64,000 nucleotides of DNA from an uncultured Chloroflexia bacterium (GCA_963700285.1 CAVOXA010000014.1:160001-224000); one strand, 5' to 3'; shown: positions 5,801-64,000, numbered from the stretch's first letter. The notes: generated by a model from the letters alone, not told the origin. Made by a program: numbers and translations.

Positions 5801-6761
5801 CTGCAGCTCACCGTCCTCCATCGCCGTGTAAAAGGCATCCTGCAGGCGCTTCAACTCCGCTTCCCGGCCCACCATGCGCGTCTCTATACCTTCCACGCCC
5901 CGTTCCGGCTTGCGAAAAGCCCTCGCTTTGGCCCGCTCCACCAGGTAGGTCTGGACTGGCACCGACCGGCCTTTGACGTGTAACGGTTCCTGGGGCTGGA
6001 CATCAAAGACGCCGCGCACATGACGGTAGGTATCGTGGCTGATCAGGATGCCGCCCGACGGCGCGTTCTGCTCCATGCGGCGCCGCCAGGTTGACCGCGT
6101 CACCCATGGCCGTATACTCGACCCTGAGATCGGTGCCCACTTCGCCGACGACCACCAGCCCGGTGTTGATACCCACCCGCACGGCAAAGCCCCGGATCCC
6201 GCGCTCCCGCTCCAACTTGATGCCGTACTCCTGAGCCCCTGCGATGATGTCCAGTGCAGCCTTGCAGGCGCGCTCCGGGTCATCCTCGTGGGCGATGGGC
6301 GCTCCGAAAAAGGCCAGGATGGCGTCACCCATCAGCCGAGCAACAGTTCCCTCCTGGCGATAGATCGGCCCCATCAGGACATCAAAGGCGCCATCCATGA
6401 TCTCGAGCCATTCCTCCGGGTCCAGCTCCTCGGCCAAAGCCGTCGAACTCTTGATATCGGAAAACAGAATCGTGACCATGCGGCGTTCGCGGCTCAGGCG
6501 ACCGCGGGTGGCCTGCAGCCGGTCGGCGTACTCTCTCGGTACCAGGCGGTGCAGCCGCTCTGCAACGGCATCGGAAGAGCCACTGGCTTGGACGTCCACC
6601 TCCGCCGCTATCTCGCCGCCGCACACGAAGCAAAAGCGTGCATCCGGATCAGGCGGCAGATCTGTTCCACACTGGGGACATACCAGGGACAGCTTGGACC
6701 CACACCTCATGCAGAAACTAGCGCCGTCAGGGTTCCATTTTTCGCATTGCGAACAGCGCAT
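2817..6761 (-). CDS. Double Zn-ribbon / class III nucleotidyl cyclase / STAND (AAA_16) ATPase / TPR / family-5 solute-binding domain fusion, copy 1 (two apparent frameshifts)
   Basis: CxxC pairs at the N-terminus. Cyclase motifs FSDIKSST, RLMGD, GINTG, VNLAA. Walker A GEAGVGKS, Walker B LEDLHWAD, GNPFF. Short TPR region, then TLDP...LFSGL, VTAHDF, TNGPF and PPFDDVRVRQAFA (OppA-like). Joined from ORFs 6003..6761, 4082..6328 and 2817..4109; the intact paralogue at 11462 supports the join. Confidence 0.85.
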
Positions 6762-15587: not shown

Positions 15588-15923
15588 CTATTGCCTGCAG
15601 GCCACGTACCTTACGTACAGTTGTGGGCACCTCATCAGCGCAGGACCTGCTCGGTCCTGGCATCCGGCGCCATCCTCTCTCCTGGTCCATCGCCCGCCTG
15701 GCCTGCTGGCAAGGGCAATGATAGGCTCGTGGCGCCACGGTGGTTCCAGGTCCTGTCTGTCAAGTACCACAGACAGGCCGGAAATAGCCAGCGCCCGTTC
15801 GGCGCCGGGGACAGGCCAGGCCAAGCCGTCTCCAGTTGGATGTGGCACAGTTCGCCCTTATGTGGTAGAATACCTAGGCGGTGCCCAAACCGCGAGACTG
15901 TCAGACTAGGAGGAGGTCAATTG

Positions 15924-46442: not shown

Positions 46443-46710
46443 GATCCACCTCCTCCTTTGGCTAGCAACCAGCCCGGTGCCTGGAACCGGCTCTGGACCC
46501 CGCCTGGAGCGGGATGGGGCGCCGGACACCGTGGCTTCTATGATACCACAGGCGGCGGGAAACGGCAATTGTAATCCATGGGCGCTGGCGTGTAGATTTC
46601 GTTGGGAGTTCGAGTTGGGACGGACCCCATGTGAGCTAGAGACGAAAGGTAACTGCCCGCGTGGTTCTGGCGGCCAACCACTCTGCGGCGGTGACGGTGG
46701 CTGGTGGCGT

Positions 46711-46740
46711 GGATTCCCGCCAAAAGCATGCGGGAATGAC
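46711..46740. repeat. REP-like hairpin ATTCCCGC-N8-GCGGGAAT
   Basis: GGATTCCCGC-CAAAAGCAT-GCGGGAATGAC, intergenic. Confidence 0.6.
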
Positions 46741-46907
46741 GGGTGGCGGAGGGTGTCATGCCCGCTGGATCGGCACCAGGGCTGAGCTGGGCGTGACAGC
46801 GTGAAAGGGGGCAGGTGATGGCGCTGAAATTGATGGGCAAGGGGGGGGTTCCTCCTGCGTGGTGGTTTCAGGGTAGGTCACGATGCTGCGGCAGTCTCGC
46901 GGGGTCT

Positions 46908-46936
46908 ATTATGGCACTGCTAGGAAAAGTTGTCAA
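46908..46936 (-). promoter_or_regulatory. sigma70 promoter divergent from the defence operon
   Basis: Minus strand reads TTGACA-17 bp-CATAAT with extended -10 TG. Confidence 0.65.
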
Positions 46937-47017
46937 GTCTTATGTGAAAATCCAGGGAGGATAAGGATCAGGTAAGCGTCCAACCGAGGGGTACCAGAGG
47001 TGGGCGACGGGGGAGAT

Positions 47018-47046
47018 TTGTGTTCTGGCGCGAATCAGGCTATAAT
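47018..47046 (+). promoter_or_regulatory. sigma70 promoter for the defence operon
   Basis: TTGTGT-17 bp-TATAAT about 140 bp upstream of the SNF2 gene. Confidence 0.6.
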
Positions 47047-47186
47047 GGGAACCAGCCAGTCCGGGGAGTCCTGTTTCGCGGACAGCCGCCTTCCAGACCC
47101 ACCATCTCTCGTATCGCTTCGGCGAGGAAGACGCAGATCCCCCTTTCAGGCACCTCGAGCAGCGTTGCACCCAGGAGTGGTTGCGC

Positions 47187-50163
47187 ATGGCAGATCGGCG
47201 TATCACCCAAAGCGATAGCCCCTCATTCGCACCTGGTACCGTGGTCAAGAACCGGGGACGGTTGTGGCGGGTGGATGCCCAGGACGGGGACGTCCTCATC
47301 GCCACGGCCATCGACGCCGGCGAGCCCGAGCAGCTCAAGTTCTACATCCCCTTCGAGGAGATCCAGCCTGGGCAGCTGGAGCCCCCGTCACCCGACATCG
47401 TGGGCCACATCGCTGCCCAAGACCTTCTCCTGCGCGCCTACCGCCTCAGCCTGCTGCACGGCACCGCCCCTCTGCTCAGCCTGCAGCGCAGCCGCGTCAT
47501 CCCCAAGGACTACCAACTGGTGCCGGTGGTCATGGCCCTGGAGATGCCCCGCGTGCGCATGCTCCTGGCCGACGACGTGGGGTTGGGCAAGACCATCGAG
47601 GCCGGGCTGATCATCACCGAGCTGCTGGCCCGCCAGATGGCCTCCCGGCTGCTGGTCATCGTCCCGGCCAACCTGCGCGAGCAGTGGCGGGAGGCGCTGG
47701 ACTACTTTTTCCACATCCCGGCGCGCATCATCTCCAGCCGCCACCGCCGCGAGATGGAGCGGGAACTGCCTGCTGGCGCCAACCCCTGGGAGCACTATCC
47801 GCTTCCTGATCACCTCGGTGGACTATGCCAAGCAGCCGGCCATCAAGAACCAGATCCTGGAGCAGCAGTGGGACGTCGTGCTCTTTGACGAGGCCCACCA
47901 GGTGGCCAAGCCCCACCAGAGCGGGCCGGACCAGCGGGTGCGCATGGACCGCTGGGAGCTGGCCGAGGCGCTGGCGCGCTAGCGACCGGGTGCGGCATCT
48001 GCTGCTTCTGACCGCCACGCCCCACAACGGCTACACCGACTCCTTTGCCAGCCTGCTGCGCATGCTGGACGTGGGCGCGACGGCCGGCCCGCTCCACGCG
48101 CCCCGCATCCTCCGGCCGGTGGCCGAGCGCCACGTCTGCCAGCGACGGCGGGAGGACGTGGAGACCTGGTTCCAGAGGACGCGACACGCGGACGTGCCGT
48201 CGCAGCCCCTTCCCCGAACGCGACCAGGATGAGGTCATCGTGCCGCCCACCTCCTACGAGATGGACGCCATCCGTGCCGTCGAAGCCTATGGCAGCCGGG
48301 TGCTGCAGCAGGCATCCGCCGGCAGCGCCCAGACACGCACTCTGGCCCATTGGACGGTGATGCACCTGCACAAGCGGGCGCTGAGCTCGCCAGAGGCGCT
48401 GCGCTGCTCGCTGCGCAACCGGCGAGAACGCCTGAGACAACGCCTGGCCGAGATGGACTACGGACTCCGCTCGCCGGATCCGAGGCAGATGCAGACCCGC
48501 CCCACTGATGCCGCCATCGCGCCCGAGGTGGCGCGCGCCAACGTGCTGGACGAGGACACCGGCGAGCGGCTGACCGACGAGGAAGCCGGCCAGCGGACCG
48601 AGCGGGTCGTCTATGGCTCGCCGCAGCAGATCCAGGCCGAGCTCGCGCTCCTGGAAGCGGTGCTGGACAAGGCCAGGCAAGGTCACCGCCGCGCCGCGAC
48701 AGCAAGCTGCAAAAGCTGTTGGACACCGTGCTCCGCCAGCGACTGGCCACCTATCCCAAGGTGGTCATCTTTACCCGCTACGTGGACACGATGAACTACC
48801 TGGCGGAGCAGATCCAGCGCGACAAGCGCTACGCCGACGCCACCGTGCTGACCATCCACGGCGGGCTGAACGAGCGACAGCGGCGGGAGGTCTTTCTGCT
48901 CGTTCGAGCGGGCCAAGATGGGCATCCTCGTCGCCACCGACGCCATCTCCGAGGGCATCAACCTGCAGCACGCCGCCGCCCAGGTGATCCACTACGAGCT
49001 GCCCTGGAACCCCAACCGGCTGGAGCAGCGCAATGGCCGGGTGGACCGCTTTGGCCAGCGCAAGCCCGTGGTCTATATCCGGACCATGGTCATGGACGAG
49101 ACGCTGGATGCGACTATCCTGAAGGTGCTGGTGGACAAAGGCAGCGCAGATCCGTCGCGACTATGGCTTTTCCCCACCCTATTTTGGCGACGAGACCAGC
49201 ATCCTGGACCTGCTGGAGCAGCACGAGGTCACGCTGGGCCCCAGTGCAGTTGAGCTTGTTCGAGGAGTTGGGGCCGGGCAGGACCGAGCGCAGGCAAGAG
49301 CCCGTCAGAGGATCCCTTTGCCGAGGAGACGCTGGAGCGGATCAAGGGCGACAGCTTTTACGGGCAGACGCACATCAGCCTGCCCGAGATCGAGCGCCGG
49401 CTGGAAGAGACGGCGGCCACGGTCGGCTCGCCGGAGGAGATCCGGCGCTTTGTGTTCAGCGGACTGAACCGCTTCGGCTGCCGTGTCAGCGAGAATGCGT
49501 GACGGCTCCTGGCGGATCATCCTGACCGAACCTGCCCTGCAGACCGCCTCGGTAGGCGAGCGTCGATCGAACGGGCGACCTTTGACCCCGAGTGGGCGCT
49601 GGACGACCCCGACGTGACGCTGCTGGACGTGGGCCACCCGCTGGTGCGGCGGCTGATCGAGGAGGTGAAGCAGCAGCGCCTTCCGGGATCAGGCGCACTA
49701 TGGACGCACGGCCTACATGGTCACGCCCGATGTGGACGAGGTGACGGCCCTGTTCCACCTGCTGGTCCGCTACGTGGTGAACACGGAGCCCACATCGATC
49801 GTGGAGGAGCTGCTGCCGGTGGCTGTGCCGGTCTACGGCGGGGAGCCGCTAGGCCGTGCAGCGACCCAGCGATTGCTTCGGGCCACGCCCTCTGCCGAAA
49901 CACGCACAGAAGCTGAAGTGAAAGAGACCCTGTCGGATGCACTGGGGATTGAGGCATTGGAGCGATTGTTTGGCGATGCGGTGGAAACGCGTCGGGAGGA
50001 GATTGCGGCCGAACGACACGCCATGGTGCGGCCCTTCGCCCAGGCTCAGGACAGGCAGACGGAGGGGCGGGAACATGTACCGTCAGCCGGGTGGCTGCGC
50101 GGGATCGACGAGCTGTCGCCCGGAAGTTCCGATCTTCTGACCATCACGATCCTATTTCCCTGA
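47187..50163 (+). CDS. SNF2-family helicase (DISARM DrmD-like), multiple frameshifts
   Basis: DYQLVP, LLADDVGLGKTIEAG (motif I), DEAH, LLLTATPHNG, VIFT.Y..T, ILVATDAISEGINLQ, YELPWNPNRLEQRNGRVDRFGQ, HPLV, spread over several ORFs. Confidence 0.88.
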
Positions 50164-50241
50164 CCGGCTATGCGACCCGGTCCAAATGGTGTAAAATATC
50201 GCATAATACGCACTTTACACTATTTGGTGAGGAGCGTAACG

Positions 50242-50693
50242 ATGCAGTCGATGCAGCGCGTTCGCAAGACCGACCTGGCCCGCAATACGCGCCAGGTGAT
50301 CAACGACGTCCTTCGCGGCCAAACGGCGGTGATCGAAAGTCACGGCGAACCGGAAGTAGCCATCATGGACATCATAGACTATCGCATCACCCGGGCGGTG
50401 ATGCGCTATTACAGCCAGCAGCCCGACATCGACACAGAGGCTGGCCTCTCCGAGGAGAGGGCAGCCAATGTCCCGGACCTGCAAGATCGTTTCAACCTGG
50501 TGCTGGCCCACTATCTGGCCGGCGCTGTCAGTCTGGGACGTGTGGCCGAGTTGTTGGGGCTTCCCTGGCTAGACCTGCGCACCCGCTTTCTGCGATTGGA
50601 TGTACCGCTGCGTGGGGCGCCATGTCGATCTCTGCTGGGGCCAGGGCTGATATCGAGGTAGGCGAGGCATGGATGAGGCCGGAACAGGGCTAG
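50242..50693 (+). CDS. Antitoxin-like protein: Phd/YefM-like N-terminus plus UPF0175-like HTH C-terminus; no adjacent toxin
   Basis: RVRKTDLARNTRQVINDV..IESHGEPEVAIM (Phd-like) and YLAGAVSLGRVAELLGL (UPF0175-like). Probable frameshift at the 3' end. Confidence 0.7.
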
Positions 50694-50719
50694 AGCGCCC
50701 CGGAGTGCGCGGAAGAACC

Positions 50720-55000
<4,281 letters not shown>

Positions 55001-55036
55001 TGGGCTGGCTGTACAAAGCTGAAACAGGAGGTCACT

Positions 55037-55285
55037 ATGGGAAGGATTACCCTGGAGATACCCGAGTCCCAGGTCATTGAGTGGGTACGACAGATCTCGC
55101 CCTCGGCCAAGCAGGAAGTGTTGAAGGCGCTCATCCCACGGCTGGAAGCCTTTGAGGCTCTGGTAGACCATGGGAACCAGCACATGCGCGCCCTCTGCGC
55201 CGAGCGCGGCCTGGACTGGGACAGCCTGACCGAGGACGAGCGCGAGCGCTTGATTGACGAGCTTTTGCACGACGACAGGGCGTAG
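55037..55285 (+). CDS. Small putative antitoxin
   Basis: 82-aa ORF with AGGAGG RBS and its own -10 box, directly upstream of the PIN gene. Confidence 0.65.
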   Translation: MGRITLEIPESQVIEWVRQISPSAKQEVLKALIPRLEAFEALVDHGNQHMRALCAERGLDWDSLTEDERERLIDELLHDDRA

Positions 55286-55287
55286 CC

Positions 55288-55684
55288 ATGCCAGAGCGGG
55301 TCGTCTTTGATACCAATATCTGGATCTCCGGCCTTGTGTGGCGCGGCAAGCCCTATCAATGTCTGCTGTTGGCGCGTGGCAGGGTGGTACAGCACGTGTA
55401 CTGCAAGGAGTATGGTAGCCGAGCTTCCGAAAGCTGCGCGAGACCTTTGGCTTTTCGGAGAACCACATCCGTGGCATTGTCTATGACCTGCGGCGCGTCT
55501 CAGAGATGGTAGAATCAGCGGCGGTCTTTGTGTGATTGCTGACGATCCGGACGACGACAAGTTTCTGGAATGTGTCAGCGGCGCGACGGCGATCGTCTCT
55601 GGCGATCATCACCTCCTGGACCTTGGCGAGTATGAGGGCGTCCCCATTCTCTCCTCGGCCGATTTCGTCGCGCGCTTCACCTGA
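55288..55684 (+). CDS. PIN-domain (VapC-like) toxin, frameshifted
   Basis: RVVFDTNIWISG, then DDPDDDKFLEC, IVSGDHHLL and ILSSADF in the other frame. Confidence 0.85.
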
Positions 55685-55699
55685 GGAACAGGAGGCTGT

Positions 55700-58170
55700 C
55701 GGCCGGTACGAGGGCGCGACATAATCCAGCCTTCGACGAGATTGGCTTTGATGGCGCGGGAGCGGGCAGGCGCGATGGCACCTGTGCCTGTGGCGCGTGA
55801 AGATAAAGCCGTGTGGCGGGAAGGGCCGTTGATAATGCCAGGAGACACCGCGGCCCTGGTCGGTGCACGCAAGCAGCAGCTACAATTCATTCAGCTCCAG
55901 AGTAACACTCAAGCCTGGCTCCGTTCCACACACAGGCACTGAGCAGCAACACAGCACACAATCACTAACCACTGAAAAGCTGGGAGACCGTGATTCCTAA
56001 CCCTGGCTGTGCCTGGGCAACACACACATTCCGGTATGTCTCGGCAGCACTTGATCGAAGCCATGCATTGTAAGGCAGTCCGCCGCGGTATGTTCTTCAC
56101 TGGATCTGATTGGAGGGCTCCAACTCTCGCGTTTGAGGGTGAGTTGACAGAAACTCTGTGAGCGCACGCGCTCCGCGCCACCCGAGGAGGCTCGCCGGGC
56201 ATGGAGCAGCCACACAACGGTGCAAGGCAGAGACAAGCAGCGCCTCCAAGAAGCTCTCGTCTGCCGCCCCGCCTGGTGCACCACTGATGGCTGACACCGA
56301 GGACCTCCCAGGGAGCTGGCGCTGACAACAGGAGCAACCTGGCAAGGCGGCACCAATGGGTCTGAGAGCCACCAGTAATGAACAGTGACTCGGCAGCAAC
56401 TGGACACACTCCTGGCCAGCCAGGCAACATGGTCCAGCCAAGGAACTGAAACGATATGAACAAAGATGCTTCTCAGCTTTCCTCTAACAAGCAGCAGCAC
56501 GCTGTTGGTGCACCAATTGGGCTGTCACGTCAACACTGGTAAAGCTTACAGGTTCGGGCGTTGATGACATGGCTGGCCGGCGCTGGTGAACCTGATGGAG
56601 AGCAAGAGCAGGTACCAAGATGCTTCAGCAACTACAACGCCCTCACAACTAGGTAGCTCTAGCTTCTTGCGGTGCCGACCTGATTAACCTGCCCATCACG
56701 TAGACAACAACAACATGATGAGCAGCCGGCCAAGCAGCAGCTCACAATCAACTCGCAGCAGCAAGAGCTCAGCAAAGCGCTCCGCTCTATGGCGGCGCTG
56801 AAACAAAGGAGGATGAGCAGTTGAAGCTGCTGAGCCACAATGACGCCTGAGGGACGGCTTCTCAAGGTTGGGTGAGGCGGCATGAGCAAGTACAATGGAC
56901 CCGTGTATTCACCAACACATCTTCCAACAAGCTGAGGCGGTGGCGTGTGTCTCACGTACCCACTGCCTCCAGCCGGAGCTGTTACCTGAACAACTGAGCA
57001 GCTTCCTGAACGTCATTGCTCATTGGGCAGCCTGATGACGCCCGTCTGACCGTATGGTGTTGGCATGTGTCGAGGAAGCTGTCCGTATCCATTCTGACCT
57101 CTAGCAACCGCAACGCTCACAACCAGTTCACAAAGTTCACAAGCAACTCGACGAAGCTGGAGCGTCACTCCGACTTGCACACAACAGCTCACGAAGATGC
57201 TGGCCAGCGGCATGAGCGCCAAGCAACCGGTCTCGTGGCCACGCCGACGACATCTACGCCACGCCTTTGCCGCAGGACGCCGGTGCACGCCAACACAAAC
57301 TCTACGCCACAACGGCGGACTCCGCTCTCCCCACTGACAAGGCCGCGGTGGACCTATTCGACAACCTGACAATCTTCGCCGTTCTCCTGCCACAAGACTC
57401 TGCGCAACTTCCTCCACGCCGACATCCACTGAAAGGCCTGTCGTCGAGGTTGATAAACACCACGCCAACAGGGACTAAACTTCCACTGGTGGCGGTGCGC
57501 CAGTGTCCCTGGGGAAGGCTAGAAACGCCAGCAGCAACCAAGGACATTGCCGCCACGTCGATCGGACAACCAGCTACTGTACCCATCGCGCTACACCCGC
57601 CATGCCGACGCCTATGCTTACACAACAATTCTCCCTGACCTGATTGGGGGATGTTGGAGAGGCAATAGCTTGACTGAGAAAGAGGAGCGAGATTGATGAT
57701 GGTCTAGCAACAATGGAGCCCTCAAGCATCCGACACCTCGAGCTAGCTGACTGGCTCTATCATTATGCTCATCGAGCTACGACAAGTCGATGGACACATA
57801 TGGCTTCAGCACATAGACCACACTACAGCAGGTATTCGCTCAATGACTAAGAATGTTGTGAGAGAGTAAGTTTTAATCCGATTGACTCTTCGTGGACTAA
57901 GGCATTATAAAGGTACCTGGGCTTGCAGCTGGCTCTGGGAAGAGGCAGCCTATTGGACTTCCATAAAGTAACAGGCCGAGTTTGAAGCTGCCACTGCCTG
58001 TTCCAGGGTCACTGGAACAGCATAGCTAAACAAAACAATGATCACAAAGATCCGGGCTCCGCCTGCATATCCATCCTGACTCAGCACTCCTCACCACGCA
58101 TCCGCATCCGTCACACACACAGACAAAGCCTAAGGACAAGGTGGCCCCACAACCCCGCAACGCCTGAGGA
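55700..58170. other. Unreadable, error-rich segment inside the defence locus
   Basis: No convincing ORF. Composition shifts to A/C-rich, and readable helicase motifs fade in only after about 58.2 kb. Confidence 0.6.
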
Positions 58171-58174
58171 CAAC

Positions 58175-61100
58175 AACAATACCTTCACGTCCTGGCCCAG
58201 CACCCAGGCCTACGGACCTACGTCCATACTTCCGAGTTCGAGACCTCCACTATATCCGACTATCGGTCACCGGCCACGGTGGAGCAGCCGCTCTGTGCAC
58301 GATGTCCACTGTCCTCGGCAACCAGCAACTTGGGAAAAAAATTCCCTCCCTGACAACTTCACATGGGCAACGGGTTGTCTGTCACCACGTCTCATTGCTC
58401 ACGGAGCAGCGCGAAACCACACAGCTCGCACATTCCCACCAGCACACAGTAAAGCATCACGATGGTGCGCCCGCATCGGACAGGTACAAGGGAAGGCGAC
58501 GGGCGGGTGAACCTGTTCCGCATCACATTCGTCGTCCTCGGTGGTGCGGCCTCAAGGCAGGTGGACCTGCGCCGTCGTCTCCCGATGGACATCGGCAACT
58601 GGCCAGATCGACGACGACTTTGCGCGCTGGCCAAGCCGCTCGGCTTCGGCTTCTATCCTCTTCGTCGCCGACGCGGTGCTGCTGGTGGCTTCGCCGATCC
58701 AGCGCGCGCGCGAACGACTACAACCCGGAGATCGGCCAGCGAGCGATGCGCTACGCACCCGGTGGTGAAGCGGCTGTGCGTGCTGCTGGAGCTGCTCGAC
58801 AACTGGGCGTGTTTGCGCGTCCGGGCGTGCTGCGCTTTCTGGTGCTGGACGAGGTGCACACCTACACCGGCAAGCGCGGCGCCGACGTGGCGGCGCCTCA
58901 TCCGCCGGCTGAAGCAGCACACCAGCACCGACGGGAGCGCTGCGCTGCATCGCCACCAGCGCCACCGTCGAGAGCCAGCCGGCGGCGACCGGAAAGGCGA
59001 GGACGCGAGCCGCGCATCGCCGATTTTGCCACACCGCTCTTTGGCGAGCCATTCAGCCGGAGGACGTCGTCACCGAGCAGTACGCGCCCCTGCCCGACGA
59101 CCTGCCGCCCCTCACCCGCGCGCATCGCCGAGGCCCTGGCCGACGGCCCCAAGACCCTCCACCAACTGGCTCGCCGACCTGGACGCCACCCCCGACAGAT
59201 CCAGCAAGCCCTCTCCAATCTCCAAGCTGCCAAGTCTACCAGCCAGTCTCCCGTCCCCAAGCTCCACGCCTTCTTCTCCCAGGGCCGCGCCATCACCGCC
59301 TGCCTGGCCCCCGAGGGACCGCACCTCAACGACCGGGGCGAGATCACCTGCCCCGCCTGCGCGACGCGGGACGGGCGGGAGCGCCCGACCTTCCCCTGGT
59401 CTTTTGCCGCGCCTGCGGCCAGGAGTTCTGGAGCGTGGCCGTGGACGAGGCGGGCCGGCTGCACCCGGCCGAACTGGACGCGGTGGACGTGCCGGGCGGC
59501 TGGGCTACCTGCTTGCCGGCCAGCCCGACGATCGAGCTGCCGGAGCACTGGCTCGACGCCCACGGGCAAGGTGCGCGGCGGCACGCGGGGCTACACCGAC
59601 GTGTGCCGGAGCCGCACACCGTCTGTCCCGATCTGCGGCCGGCTGGACGGCGACTGCGATCACGCAGAAGCGATGCCGCGTGACCGTTCCTGCCGGCACC
59701 CTTTCTCTTCTGCCCCACCTGCGGCATCGTCCACGACCGGCGCTCGCGCGAGTACAACAAGCTCTTTACTCTTTGGCTCGGTGGGCCGCTCGACCGCCAC
59801 CGACGTGCTGGTCAGCGCCCAGGTGCAGGCCCTGCCCCGGGACGCGAACAAGGTGATCGCCTTTTCCGACAACCGGCAGGACACGGCGCTGCAGGCGGCG
59901 CACATGAACAGCCTGCACAACCGCTTCACCTTCCGGCGGACGCTGTACACGGCGCTGCGGGAGGGTAGAGCCACGTGGTGGGCGAGGCGGGCGCTGCGCA
60001 GCGCACGGGCGGCTGCTGTTCGAGGCCAGGCGCGGCACGGCGTGCTGCCCGAGTTTCGCACCAGCCAGCGCATCTTCGGCCGGGACGGCAGGCAGAGAGC
60101 GCGCTACCAGCAGGTACCTGGACTTTGTCATGCTCCTGTGGGAGCTGGGCGGCACCCACCGGCGCACGCACCAGAACCTGGAGGACGTGGGGCTGCTGGT
60201 CGTCGGCTATGACGGCCTGGACGCGTGGCCGCGGCGGACGACTACTGGGCCGACGTGCCGCACATGGCCGACCTGGATGCCGACGCGCGCTACGACGTCC
60301 TGCTGGGCTTGCTCGACCTGATGCGCAAGCGCGCCTGGGCCATGCGACCATCCTCGAGCCCTTCCGGCTTCCGGACGGACGTTCTGGACAAGTCAACGAG
60401 GAGGCACATCCACGACGAGCTGCCTTTCGCGGCCCCATCGGCTACAGCGACGACAGCGAGTACACAACTCTCGTAGGGCGCGGTGTACCGCTGACCGGCA
60501 CCAACACCCAGCCCGTGGTCTGGATCAAGCGCGCTTCGGGCGTTGGGCCTGGATTACCGGCACACGCCGACGCCGTGGTCCTTCCGCCGCGTGGCCAGAG
60601 CTGGGCGACCCCGGACGCCGAGTTCCTGGTCGGCACACACGTGCAGCGGCTACGGGCGAGCGCTACGACCTGTGGATGTCTACTCCTGCCGATGCTGTCG
60701 GCCCTGGGCCGACCCGGCAGCGGAGCAGTGGCGCTGTCCCAAGTGCGGCACGGTGCATCACTTCCGGCCCCTGCGGGTCTGCACCGGCTCCACCTGCCGC
60801 ACGACGCTGATGCGGCGAGGACCTGGCCGGGAACTATTTCCGGCAGGTCTATGCCACACCGCTGGGCGAGGCGGTGCCCGTCCAGGCCGAGGAGCACTCG
60901 GGCCAGGTGCCGCGGCCAGGAGCGGCGCGGAGATCGAGGTGCGCTTCCGCGAGGCCGAGGCTCCGCTCAACGTGCCTCATCTGCACGCCGACCATGGAGC
61001 TGGGCATCGACATCGGCCACCTGAACGCGGTCACTCTGCGCAACGTGCCGCCCAGCCCCTCCAATTACGCCCAGCGGGCCGGGCGCGCCGGGCGGAGCGG

Positions 61101-63172
61101 GCAGGCCTCGCTCATCACCGTCTTTGCCGGCGTCGGCGCGGCCCGCGGCCCGCACGACCAGTACTTCTATCGCTTTCCGGAAAAGATGATCGCCGGGGCC
61201 AATCGCCCGCCGCGCTTCCGCCTGGACAACCGGCCCTGATCCCGGCCCACATCCACGCCCTGGTGCTGGAGACGCTGGGGCTGACCGGGACGGAGCGGCT
61301 GCCGGGCCGGCCCATCGGAGCTGCTCGACCTGGAGAGGTGGGATCTTCCTCTCTATCCCGGCTGGGCAGCAGCCTACCGGGCGGGCATGGACCGCTACTT
61401 GGCCCGACATCGCCGACGCGGTGGGCGAGGCCTTTGGCCGCCGAGATGAGGCCGATATCGACTGGTTCGACGCGCCTTTGTGGACGAGGCGAGTGCGGAG
61501 CTTTGTGGATGCCCTGGACGGGCCATGGACCGCTGGCGGGCCGAGTACGAGCGGCTGGACGAGGAGCGGGAGGAAATGAACCGCCTCCTGGGACGCGAGG
61601 GGGCCGGCGACCGGCCCTGAACCGGCGGCGGATCGTGGTCGAGGGCAAGACGGCAGGCCATGCGCGAGGGGCAGAGGGACTGGTACCTGTACCGCTACCT
61701 GGGCGGCGAAGGGTTCCTGCCCGGCTATGCCTTCCCGCCGCAGGCGGCGAGTCCTGTCCTTCGACGAGCAGGAGGACGAGCTGGCCCGCGACCCGGCCAT
61801 CGCCCTGACCGAGTACGCGCCGGGCAATTTCGTCTACTACCGCGGCGCACGCTACGAGATCACCCACGGCCGGCCCCGCACCCGCGGCGAAAACCTGCTG
61901 GCCTTTGAGAAGGTGCTGATCTGTCCTGAGTGCGGCACGGCCTACCTGGGCGCAGGACGTCCAAGCGCGCTGCCTGTGCCTGCTGCGGCGGACTCGTTCA
62001 CAGGCGTACACCCCATCCAGCGCGCTCTGCAGATGCCCGACATGGTCGCCCACCGGCGCACGTCGCATCACCGCCGATGAGGAGGAGCGCATGCGCCGTG
62101 GGTACCTGGTCGAACCACACTACCAGATGGGAGACGATGTCCAAGCCTACCAAGTCTCGCACGGCGGCCAGGCCGCCTTCGAGTTGACCTACGAGCACAA
62201 CGGTCGCATTATCGTCGTCAATCAGGGCACACGACAGACCGAGCAGGACAACGAGCCGCCAGGCTTTACCTTCTGCCGGGCCTGCAACCGCTGGCTGGTG
62301 GGAAAGAATGCCATTGAGGAGCATTCCGGCGAGGGCGGCAAGTGTCCCCGGCACGCGCGAAGCGAGGACATTCTGGGCGGCATCTATTTGTTCACCGACT
62401 CCCGCAATGATGTAGTGACCCTGGTTTGTCCCCAGCCCGGCGACGTGCCTGACGCCGACGCTTTCTATACAACGCTGCTGCACACATTCAAGCAGGCGCT
62501 GCTCATCACCATGAACCTGGATGAGAGCGAAGTGGGCGGTTTCCTGGCGGCGGTGTCCGTTGGCGAGGAACGCCAGCGCCTCGTGCTATACGAAACAGCC
62601 GAGGGTGGCACCGGCGCCGTCGAGTCCCTGACCGATCCCCATCGTCTGCTGGCGGTCATCCGGAATGCTCAGGAACTCCTCCATGAGGACGAGCCGGAGC
62701 AGGGCTGCGAGAAGGCATGCTACGAATGCCTCTGCTCGTTCTACAACCAGCGAGACCACGGGCTGTTGGACCGCCATCTGGTGCTGCCCTTCTTGCGCTC
62801 GCTGGAACACGCTGACGGTTGAGGCCATACAGGCAACCATCGGCCCAACACTGGCCGAGCTGGAGGCTCAGTGCCAATCGGACCTGGAGCGGCAGGTGCT
62901 GCAGAGCCATCCACGATCGTGGCCTGCGCCTGCCAGATGCTGCGCAGAGAATCCTCTACGATGGAGATGAGCCGATTGCCATCGCGGACTTCTTCTACGA
63001 GCCCCGGATCGTGGTCTTTGTCGATGGCTCGCCGCATCACCAGGATTACGTCCAGGCTGCTGATGACTGGAAGCGGCGCCGGCTGGTGGCCAGAGGGTAC
63101 CGGATTGTGGTGGTGCGCGGGGAGGAGATGGAGGCTGGGTTGAGTGACCTGGCTTCGCGGCTGATGAGTTGA
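58175..63172 (+). CDS. Large DEAD/DEAH helicase with DUF1998 (MrfA-type Zn domain) and C-terminal DUF559/Vsr-like nuclease; heavily frameshifted, start approximate
   Basis: Corrupted Walker A near 58475. [101 protein letters not shown], then [18 protein letters not shown]. Confidence 0.85.
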
Positions 63173-63195
63173 CGCGTCAGGTGGACACTGCTTTC

Positions 63196-63230
63196 AGACC
63201 TCGGGGGTCCCAGGCAGACCCCCGAGGTCT
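63196..63230. repeat. REP-like hairpin (family of 19095/26976)
   Basis: Perfect 14-bp inverted repeat AGACCTCGGGGGTC / GACCCCCGAGGTCT just after the helicase stop. Confidence 0.7.
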
Positions 63231-63492
63231 TGGCGTGTTCAGCCGGGCGGGATGATGAGCCGGCGGGCGTCGTCGGGGGGTCCGGCCGTCCCTTGGCCGC
63301 GTGACCCCTGCCGACAGTTCTGTGGTATTCTCACTGCTCGCTTCGAGCTTGCTAGAAACCCGATTCTGTGTTAGACTTATGTCATGAACTGGAGCCTCCC
63401 TACGAGGAGGACAAAGCCCTGACAGGGCTTTTGCTGCAGGAGCAGACCCGTCAGGTCTCCATGCGCGCAGCAGAAAGGGAGGGGAAGGAACC

Positions 63493-64000
63493 ATGCATTG
63501 GCCAAGCTTACTGATCGGCATCGTTTTGGGCTGGATCATCGAATGGCTCATCGACTTTTTCTTTACCCGCAAGAGACGCCAGGATTGGGCCGACAAAGAA
63601 ACTGACATGGGGGTCCAACTCGCAAATGCCCTGGCTGAGAACAACACCCTGCGGGCGCAGCTCACCGCACAGCAGGAAGCGGAGAGCGTAGCGGCGGAGA
63701 TGGAGACCCGGGCGCCAGAAGCGGCCGGTTTGGCCGCAGCCGGTCTGGCCACGGCCGGCTTCGCCGCGGCGGCTTTGTCCGGCGAAGGTGCGGTCGTGAC
63801 CGGGGACGACCTGACCATCATCGAGGGGATCGGCAGCAGGACGGCCGGGTTGCTGAACCAGCAGGGCATCTATACCTTTGCCGAGCTGGCAGACACGGAC
63901 GTCGATCGCCTGCGGACGATGCTGGCGGAGGGAGGTCCTGCCTTCCGCCTGGCGGCGCCCGATACCTGGCCGCGTCAGGCGCGACTGGCGGCCAATCACG
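63493..64000 (+). CDS. Membrane-anchored helix-hairpin-helix domain protein, runs off the window end
   Basis: Read manually: MHWPSLLIGIVLGWIIEWLID (transmembrane), coiled coil, DDLTIIEGIG..LNQQGIYTFAELA..TWPRQARLA. Not in the ORF track because there is no stop codon in the window. Confidence 0.8.
   Translation, partial: MHWPSLLIGIVLGWIIEWLIDFFFTRKRRQDWADKETDMGVQLANALAENNTLRAQLTAQQEAESVAAEMETRAPEAAGLAAAGLATAGFAAAALSGEGAVVTGDDLTIIEGIGSRTAGLLNQQGIYTFAELADTDVDRLRTMLAEGGPAFRLAAPDTWPRQARLAANH

Follow-up and report, generated by a model that had tools for sequence, protein, structure and literature searches.

An ARMADA-like defense locus, its genes probably broken by assembly errors, on an accessory island of an uncultured Chloroflexia bacterium

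INTRODUCTION

In the available text of the preprint that describes it (Bell et al., bioRxiv, Sept 2025, PMC12458937), the defense family ARMADA is built from ArmA, a BrxHII-like helicase, ArmB, a PglX-like methyltransferase, and ArmC, a YprA-like helicase to which a Vsr nuclease, predicted to be active, is fused. Gene order is variable in type I and strict in type II, where A-B-C is followed by ArmD, a RelE-GajB fusion; the main text of the preprint ties ArmD to type II only. The same source reports that type II of Escherichia coli gives nonabortive antiphage defense for which all four genes and the NPPW motif are needed, and PMC13463889 (mBio 2026), in its available part, confirms the type II findings in enterohemorrhagic E. 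coli (EHEC). Within the available parts of both papers, the phage tests reported are for E. coli type II, and none are for type I. Here, we describe an ARMADA-like locus in a stretch of 64,000 nucleotides (nt) from an uncultured Chloroflexia bacterium (GCA_963700285.1 CAVOXA010000014.1:160001-224000). We refer to this whole stretch as the window, and all positions are counted within it.

Judging from the DNA, we consider it likely that this locus is a member of ARMADA carried on a 20-kb island and that the approximately 80 breaks in its reading frames are errors of the assembly rather than marks of decay. The locus adds an environmental member to a defense family described only in 2025.

RESULTS AND DISCUSSION

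Three co-oriented genes with ARMADA-like products

Between 47.0 and 63.2 kb, the plus strand of the window holds no long open gene, and stop-to-stop open reading frames (ORFs) overlap in all three frames. We scanned the 80 plus-strand stop-to-stop ORFs of at least 60 amino acids (aa) from 46.5 to 64 kb with Pfam and ran the PADLOC library of 2023 on 35 proteins, 31 of which were window fragments. Relatives were sought by a DNA search in 40 related genomes and a protein search in 300 genomes of the class. Gene spans were obtained with a custom protein-to-DNA aligner that tolerates frame changes (frame-following alignment). Pfam, PADLOC, and this alignment agreed on ordered fragments of three large co-oriented genes on the plus strand from 47.1 to 63.2 kb (Table 1). 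These are a SNF2 helicase, an N6-adenine methyltransferase, and a helicase-DUF1998 chain with a putative nuclease, which is how a first-pass annotation of the same DNA had read them; we call them armA, armB, and armC. That annotation did not mention that all three genes lack an open frame in the assembly: we counted 12 frame breaks and no in-frame stops in armA, 30 to 32 breaks and 0 to 1 stops in armB, and 34 to 37 breaks and 0 to 1 stops in armC.

The armA fragments matched SNF2-rel_dom, ResIII, and Helicase_C in Pfam (47046 to 49250), and in PADLOC they matched DrmD (2e-36 and 1.9e-27) and BrxHII (1.4e-23). The alignment of armA runs from 47064 or 47165 to 50160 and follows an intact 1,005-aa protein of genome G018 with 84% aa identity over 966 aligned codons. 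Both the Walker A motif GLGKT (47580) and DEAH (47887) are kept on the followed frame. For armB, the Pfam pieces were MmeI_Mtase, Eco57I, and N6_Mtase (52376 to 53634), and the PADLOC matches were DrmMI (6.9e-31) and PglX (2.1e-08). The alignment of armB extends from 50717 to 54913; over 1,361 codons, armB is 74% identical in aa to an intact 1,402-aa protein of G065, and it carries the S-adenosylmethionine-binding motif GSGHF at 52442 and the catalytic motif NPPW at 53242.

In armC, Pfam detected Helicase_C (60811 to 61236, 9.3e-10) and MZB, which is DUF1998 (61920 to 62819, 2.8e-09), and PADLOC matched its fragments to DruE1 (1.1e-30 and 3.4e-21); the same fragment reached 1e-30 with DruE versus 1e-11 with DrmA. 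The first-pass annotation had supposed that the helicase and DUF1998 form one chain. This was borne out, in keeping with the OB-CON-DUF1998 module that ARMADA has in the chain of its YprA-family helicase, as armC aligns from 58134 or 58480 to 63163 collinearly with single ORFs of 1,698 to 1,818 aa in relatives, and it is 60 to 64% identical in aa to intact relatives of 1,726 to 1,818 aa. The followed translation contains DEVH (58848) and nine CxxC motifs, and its C terminus is nearly identical to that of the G002 protein, while the first 350 to 700 nt of the gene are poorly conserved. With regard to further ArmC hallmarks of ARMADA, namely, a BrxA-like insertion after RecA1, a beta-barrel zinc module, and a MarR-like insertion in RecA2, what the translation shows is the nine CxxC motifs. 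We dropped the idea that armC is 5' truncated; the frame-following match reaches back, weakly, to 58134 to 58480.

The intact proteins of the relatives were compared by BLASTP with the ARMADA locus of E. coli ATCC 8739. They matched E. coli ArmA at 9e-59 to 7e-65, ArmB at 5e-32 to 2e-67, ArmC at 2e-37 to 3e-56, and ArmD at 9e-34 and 4e-31. The matches to ArmC were better than those to E. coli DruE (5e-29 to 3e-34). We then built a FastTree of 25 ArmC/DruE rows, for which the support values are Shimodaira-Hasegawa (SH)-like only. The window ArmC fell in a 7-row clade (support 100) whose sister was a 10-row clade of three-gene loci. Both clades were apart from E. coli ArmC and three type II loci (G296, G297, and G224), and E. 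coli DruE lay outside the ArmC clades on a long branch. ArmA-like and ArmB-like genes stand beside ArmC in 9 of 10 fetched neighborhoods, in the orders A-B-C, C-A-B, and B-C-A, and G017 has the order A-B-STAND-C. We detected ArmC-like genes in 71 of the 301 class genomes that were sampled (E ≤ 1e-30), a count that includes type II and Druantia-like helicases.

The locus lies within a 20.2-kb insertion, extending from window position 46454 to about 66702, which the congeneric genome G001 lacks. The sequences that flank the insertion are 277 bp apart in G001 (C6, 352547 and 352824) versus 20.2 kb apart here, which makes the locus part of an accessory island. The GC content of the island is 0.63 to 0.71, versus 0.61 genome-wide. 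A search for end repeats or att sites of the island gave none that were convincing, and no integrase was seen in 63.2 to 66.7 kb.

Table 1. Features of the locus, in window coordinates
Feature	Position (nt)	Strand	Basis or remark
armA, SNF2 / BrxHII / DrmD-like helicase	about 47064-50163	+	Pfam, PADLOC, frame-following alignment
165-aa open ORF	about 50164-50661	+	weak Phd/YefM-like match
armB, PglX / DrmMI / type IIG-like N6-adenine DNA methyltransferase	about 50714-55000	+	Pfam, PADLOC, frame-following alignment
Near-perfect palindrome in armB	51422-51456	no strand	35 nt
VapBC-like pair	about 55001-55685	+	sub-cutoff PIN_3
Degenerate block, likely ArmD-like relic	55612-57662	+	collinear frame-following match
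armC, YprA-family helicase + DUF1998 + putative C-terminal Vsr-like nuclease	about 58134-63172	+	Pfam, PADLOC, frame-following alignment
Insertion, in-window part	46455-64000	no strand	comparison with G001

Relation to the two ARMADA types

By its clade and the size of its ArmC, the locus appears type I-like; this assignment rests on the exclusion of the window ArmC from the type II clade. Type I and the locus have in common a BrxHII-like SNF2 helicase, a PglX-like methyltransferase, and a YprA-like helicase, which at this locus ends in a putative Vsr-type nuclease. They also share a variable gene order that includes A-B-C and an ArmC of about 1,700 to 1,820 aa that lacks the additional C-terminal domains seen in type II. 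What differs from type I, as the available text of the preprint presents it, is that G002, G072, and G129, all members of the window's clade, have an ArmD-like gene before ArmC.

With type II (E. coli NCTC 12900, ATCC 8739, and EDL933), the window's clade shares homologs of all four components, and armA-armB likewise come ahead of armC. However, the E. coli ArmC is 2,113 aa long and 26 to 27% identical to the relatives. ArmD follows ArmC in E. coli, whereas here a dead-looking ArmD-like remnant, itself a weak match, precedes armC, and the genes after armC encode an HHH-repeat protein and an Ig-like/LysM protein. Type II is also present in the same class: the loci of G296, G297, and G224 (L110, L111, and L112) have an ArmC of 2,085 to 2,226 aa that is 33% identical to E. 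coli ArmC, and an ArmD after ArmC that is 41 to 47% identical to E. coli ArmD.

By analogy with E. coli type II, ArmB would mark the host DNA, and invading DNA without the mark would be the substrate of the ArmA and ArmC motors. The Vsr-type nuclease of ArmC would be the likely cutter, and the predicted outcome is direct, nonabortive protection.

Frame breaks in the arm genes

Across armA, armB, and armC, we counted about 80 indels versus at most two in-frame stops. On the followed frames, the GC content at the three codon positions is 0.67 to 0.71, 0.44 to 0.49, and 0.86 to 0.88, which is the pattern of a live gene. The small frame-shifting gaps of armA relative to two close relatives are all extra bases in the window. 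In contigs of relatives from four sediment or marsh metagenomes, nine break sites have one letter fewer. These metagenomes contain relatives of the locus, not its source, and therefore the comparison goes no further than marking the extra bases as a peculiarity of this assembly.

The same kind of damage is found in essential genes elsewhere in the genome. The single rpoC locus (C10:1212613-1217243) has 26 frame breaks in 4.6 kb, 23 of which are +1 insertions, and one stop, as measured against an intact 1,536-aa RpoC of 84% identity. The secA gene (C1:1054531-1060901) lies in pieces in three frames. Of the gyrA-like genes, the main one is intact, and a second copy has one split. Among other genomes, rpoC is split in the few-contig assemblies G001 and G015 and intact in G017 and G011. 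When the first 20 kb of the window were aligned with orthologous stretches of G001, 19 one- or two-base gaps appeared in 10.3 kb. Genome-wide scans of ORF coverage and of the phase of third-position GC (GC3) placed the locus at about the 99th percentile together with some 20 other segments, and such scans are too blunt for mapping patches of error. Completeness of the genome is 89%, and contamination is 6.5%. Indel errors in this assembly are thus patchy and biased toward insertions, a signature that the arm genes share. The frame breaks of the arm genes are very probably such errors, because essential rpoC and secA bear the same damage and because 60 to 84% identity and the catalytic motifs persist on the followed frames. 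The real arm genes are probably intact.

Several observations weigh against this interpretation or against parts of it. In the same genome, rpoB is intact. The density of breaks at the locus, 4 to 7 per kb, clearly exceeds that in most of the initial 47 kb of the window, which include several open ORFs of 1,150 to 1,240 aa; with dense breaks beside open flanking ORFs, the errors would have to be patchy. A search of sequencing runs yielded none that contains the locus, and the best run shares 0.08 of its sampled words. As for the proteins, no Walker A motif was recognizable along the followed frame of armC, and the C-terminal DUF559 match of armC (62816 to 63169) reached an E value of 0.0054 and 17.0 bits versus a cutoff of 20.6 bits. 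Among the relatives, the DUF559 match is above the cutoff in G017 (25.5 bits), and there is none in G002 at an E value of 0.001. Last, the block at 55.7 to 58.4 kb, which is treated further below, combines in-frame stops with a 36% mismatch at 412 conserved sites and is not explicable by indel errors alone. Part of the system, including the start of armC, may be truly damaged, because this block runs into the poorly conserved first 350 to 700 nt of that gene.

If these points are given full weight, the locus could be a genuinely decayed ARMADA relic, with four pseudogenes on an old island and frame breaks that are real mutations. The degeneracy of the block beyond what indels produce, the unrecognizable Walker A of armC, the crowding of breaks relative to most of the flanking 47 kb, and the 35-nt palindromic element within armB would all fit such a history. 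We nevertheless regard it as unlikely. Indels far outnumber in-frame stops, the codon-position GC signature is strong, the catalytic motifs are intact, and essential rpoC and secA in the same assembly have the same +1-dominated damage. In addition, armC has changed little at conserved sites: of the 1,499 sites on which four relatives agree, only 62 (4%) are different in armC, about half of them (30) at third positions. Assembly error thus remains the explanation that we prefer for the arm genes. Calls of pseudogenes, split genes, or novel architectures in this genome need a control for indel errors first.

Comparison with Druantia, DISARM, and BREX

Like DruE, the product of armC is a giant YprA-family helicase with DUF1998 and zinc-binding CxxC modules, and DruE is the best PADLOC match of its fragments; the difference is that the relatives are closer to E. 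coli ArmC than to E. coli DruE. Another explanation is that the locus is an unlinked mix within a defense island, in which a SNF2 helicase that acts alone, a Druantia-type DruE, and a restriction-modification enzyme of type IIG merely adjoin. In its favor, PADLOC names the helicase DruE, the methyltransferase also matches type IIG models (7.9e-112), and near-identical SNF2 genes precede a DEAD helicase in G018 and a SIR2 protein in G040. However, the Druantia partners DruA to DruD, DruM/F/G, and DruH had no PADLOC match among the 31 window fragments, and no Druantia partner matched among the 35 proteins scanned. The trio recurs in 9 of the 10 fetched neighborhoods and in G017, among distant homologs and in three gene orders. 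Furthermore, ArmA to ArmD are all needed for defense in E. coli, according to the available parts of PMC12458937 and PMC13463889. A chance assembly of unlinked genes is therefore very unlikely.

DISARM class I (DrmD, DrmMI, DrmA, DrmB, and DrmC) also combines a SNF2 helicase, an N6-adenine methyltransferase, and a YprA-family helicase with DUF1998; in contrast, the helicase and DUF1998 are fused here, and a putative Vsr-type nuclease is attached. It is hardly credible that the unreadable segment conceals drmC and a separate drmB, which would make the locus a variant or incomplete DISARM class I: DrmD and DrmMI are PADLOC's best names for two of the genes, but MZB sits in the helicase chain both at this locus and in every intact relative, DrmA is a far poorer match for the helicase than DruE and ArmC are, and Pfam detected no PLD/HKD domain in the 80 plus-strand ORFs or in the 38 ORFs on both strands of 55.5 to 58.6 kb.

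The first-pass annotation had likewise reported no HKD/PLD gene and neither PglZ nor BrxC, and had allowed that a drmC might emerge from the unreadable segment together with separate drmA and drmB genes. We looked for this and found no DrmC among the 38 ORFs of that region, and the helicase-DUF1998 chain stays single. Scanning of the locus with Pfam and PADLOC gave no match to the BREX proteins PglZ and BrxC. The broader claim of the first-pass annotation, of a distinct methylation-based system related to DISARM class I, holds as to distinctness, given the fused chain, the lack of a PLD gene, the homology to the E. coli Arm proteins, and the tree. As to novelty it does not, because with the description of ARMADA in 2025 such a relative of DISARM class I is no longer new. 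The match to a known system comes from the literature; the PADLOC library of 2023 names only DrmD, DrmMI, and DruE parts.

The stretch between armB and armC

From 55.7 to about 58.4 kb, the GC content is 0.56 and stops occur every 25 to 35 codons in all frames. The 38 ORFs on both strands of 55.5 to 58.6 kb gave no Pfam match. An Rfam search of 46 to 64 kb also gave no match (E ≤ 0.1), and thus the unreadable block is no known RNA gene.

In G002, G072, and G129, an ArmD-like ParE/RelE-UvrD protein of 735 to 823 aa is encoded directly upstream of ArmC, and these proteins match GajB models (2.2e-30). The degenerate block listed in Table 1 is collinear with them. Aligned with the G002 protein, it reaches a frame-following score of 197, compared with 90 ± 14 for eight shuffles, 81 for the reverse strand, and 123 ± 19 (maximum, 172) for 45 random segments of the same genome. 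Along this match, the block is 37% identical to the G002 protein, has four in-frame stops, and lacks the Walker A lysine; its GC content by codon position is flat (0.61/0.53/0.60). Nothing significant was obtained with a three-protein hmmsearch profile run against the ORF fragments, with nhmmer, or with blastn at word size 7. On balance, we lean toward the block being a dead ArmD-like gene rather than unrelated DNA or a worst-case patch of the assembly. The first-pass annotation had counted three core genes. armA, armB, and armC stand, but the count may be understated if the block is the likely relic of a fourth, ArmD-like gene.

Other candidates for the origin of the block were tried and rejected. 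The RecQ-like helicase and the DprA-like protein of G065, the gap ORFs of G090, and an Mrr-like protein of G072 scored no better on it than shuffles did. We also considered G-to-A hypermutation of the block. A is raised by 0.09 and G is lowered by 0.075, yet polarized changes at conserved sites have no single dominant type, and we rejected this reading.

An ArmD-like gene in front of armC in a clade that is not type II, and a variable slot between armB and armC, are mildly new and provide small leads on how the ARMADA types relate. It is a tentative and somewhat doubtful extension of these observations that the window's ArmC clade is an undescribed ARMADA variant, in which ArmD precedes armC in a swappable armB-armC slot and in which, at this locus, ArmD would be dead while ArmA to ArmC are under selection. 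If true, the variant clade would show that ARMADA is able to shed ArmD and run on three genes.

The contents of the armB-armC slot vary among relatives. In G017, it holds a NACHT-HEAT STAND NTPase with an EAD10 domain (L018:9064-13770). The slot of G065 (L054:954-3815, 42-950) encodes a DprA-like protein and a RecQ-like helicase that also contains HEAT repeats and a PRTase domain. In G090 (L052:104-2479), there are three ORFs without a strong family match, one of which has a weak NOV_C match.

Immediately after armB, the window has a VapBC-like pair, made up of a 94-aa ORF and then a PIN_3 gene with one frame break. The two PIN_3 pieces (55258 to 55509 and 55487 to 55681) are both below the cutoff. 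DNA homologs of the pair, at 65 to 80% identity, are present in five other genomes.

Other features of the locus and its surroundings

The palindrome within armB is near perfect, with 16-nt arms and a 3-nt loop. Related copies occur at four other places in the same genome and in several relatives. In the four metagenomes, the edges of the palindrome are the exact end points of many contigs with unrelated flanks. Because contigs break exactly at these edges, the data suggest a small mobile element or one like the repetitive extragenic palindromic (REP) elements.

The 165-aa ORF between armA and armB matches PhdYeFM_antitox below the cutoff (E value, 0.0011) and has DNA homologs in G013, G017, and G029. 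The G017 homolog, of 154 aa (L019:419-880), lies directly 3' of the ArmC-like gene, and after it come genes for a PAPS-reductase/4Fe-4S protein and an NB-ARC-WD40 protein.

Two other genomes carry SNF2 genes that are 80 to 83% identical to armA in DNA. In G018 (L010:4374-5639), the next gene encodes a DEAD/Helicase_C protein. In G040 (L009:3495-4700, minus strand), the next gene after the armA-like SNF2 gene encodes a SIR2_2 protein. Neither genome has a methyltransferase gene there. Because these copies adjoin genes other than a methyltransferase gene, the ArmA-type helicase may serve other partner sets as well.

In the first 20 kb of the window, ordinary genes appear to be split relative to G001 by single-base gaps; examples are a cyclase-AAA-TPR gene at 6079 and a nitroreductase gene at 15918. 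The segment from 6.5 to 15.8 kb has no counterpart at the syntenic position of G001. The only tRNA of the window is at 32.4 kb. Downstream of armC come the gene for the HHH-repeat protein and then that for the Ig-like (Big_6/Big_13) LysM protein. The HHH-repeat protein, directly after armC, has 424 aa, and its gene contains two tandem 273-nt copies and three 90-nt copies (63804 to the window's end at 64000 and on to about 64700; L001:18305-19199).

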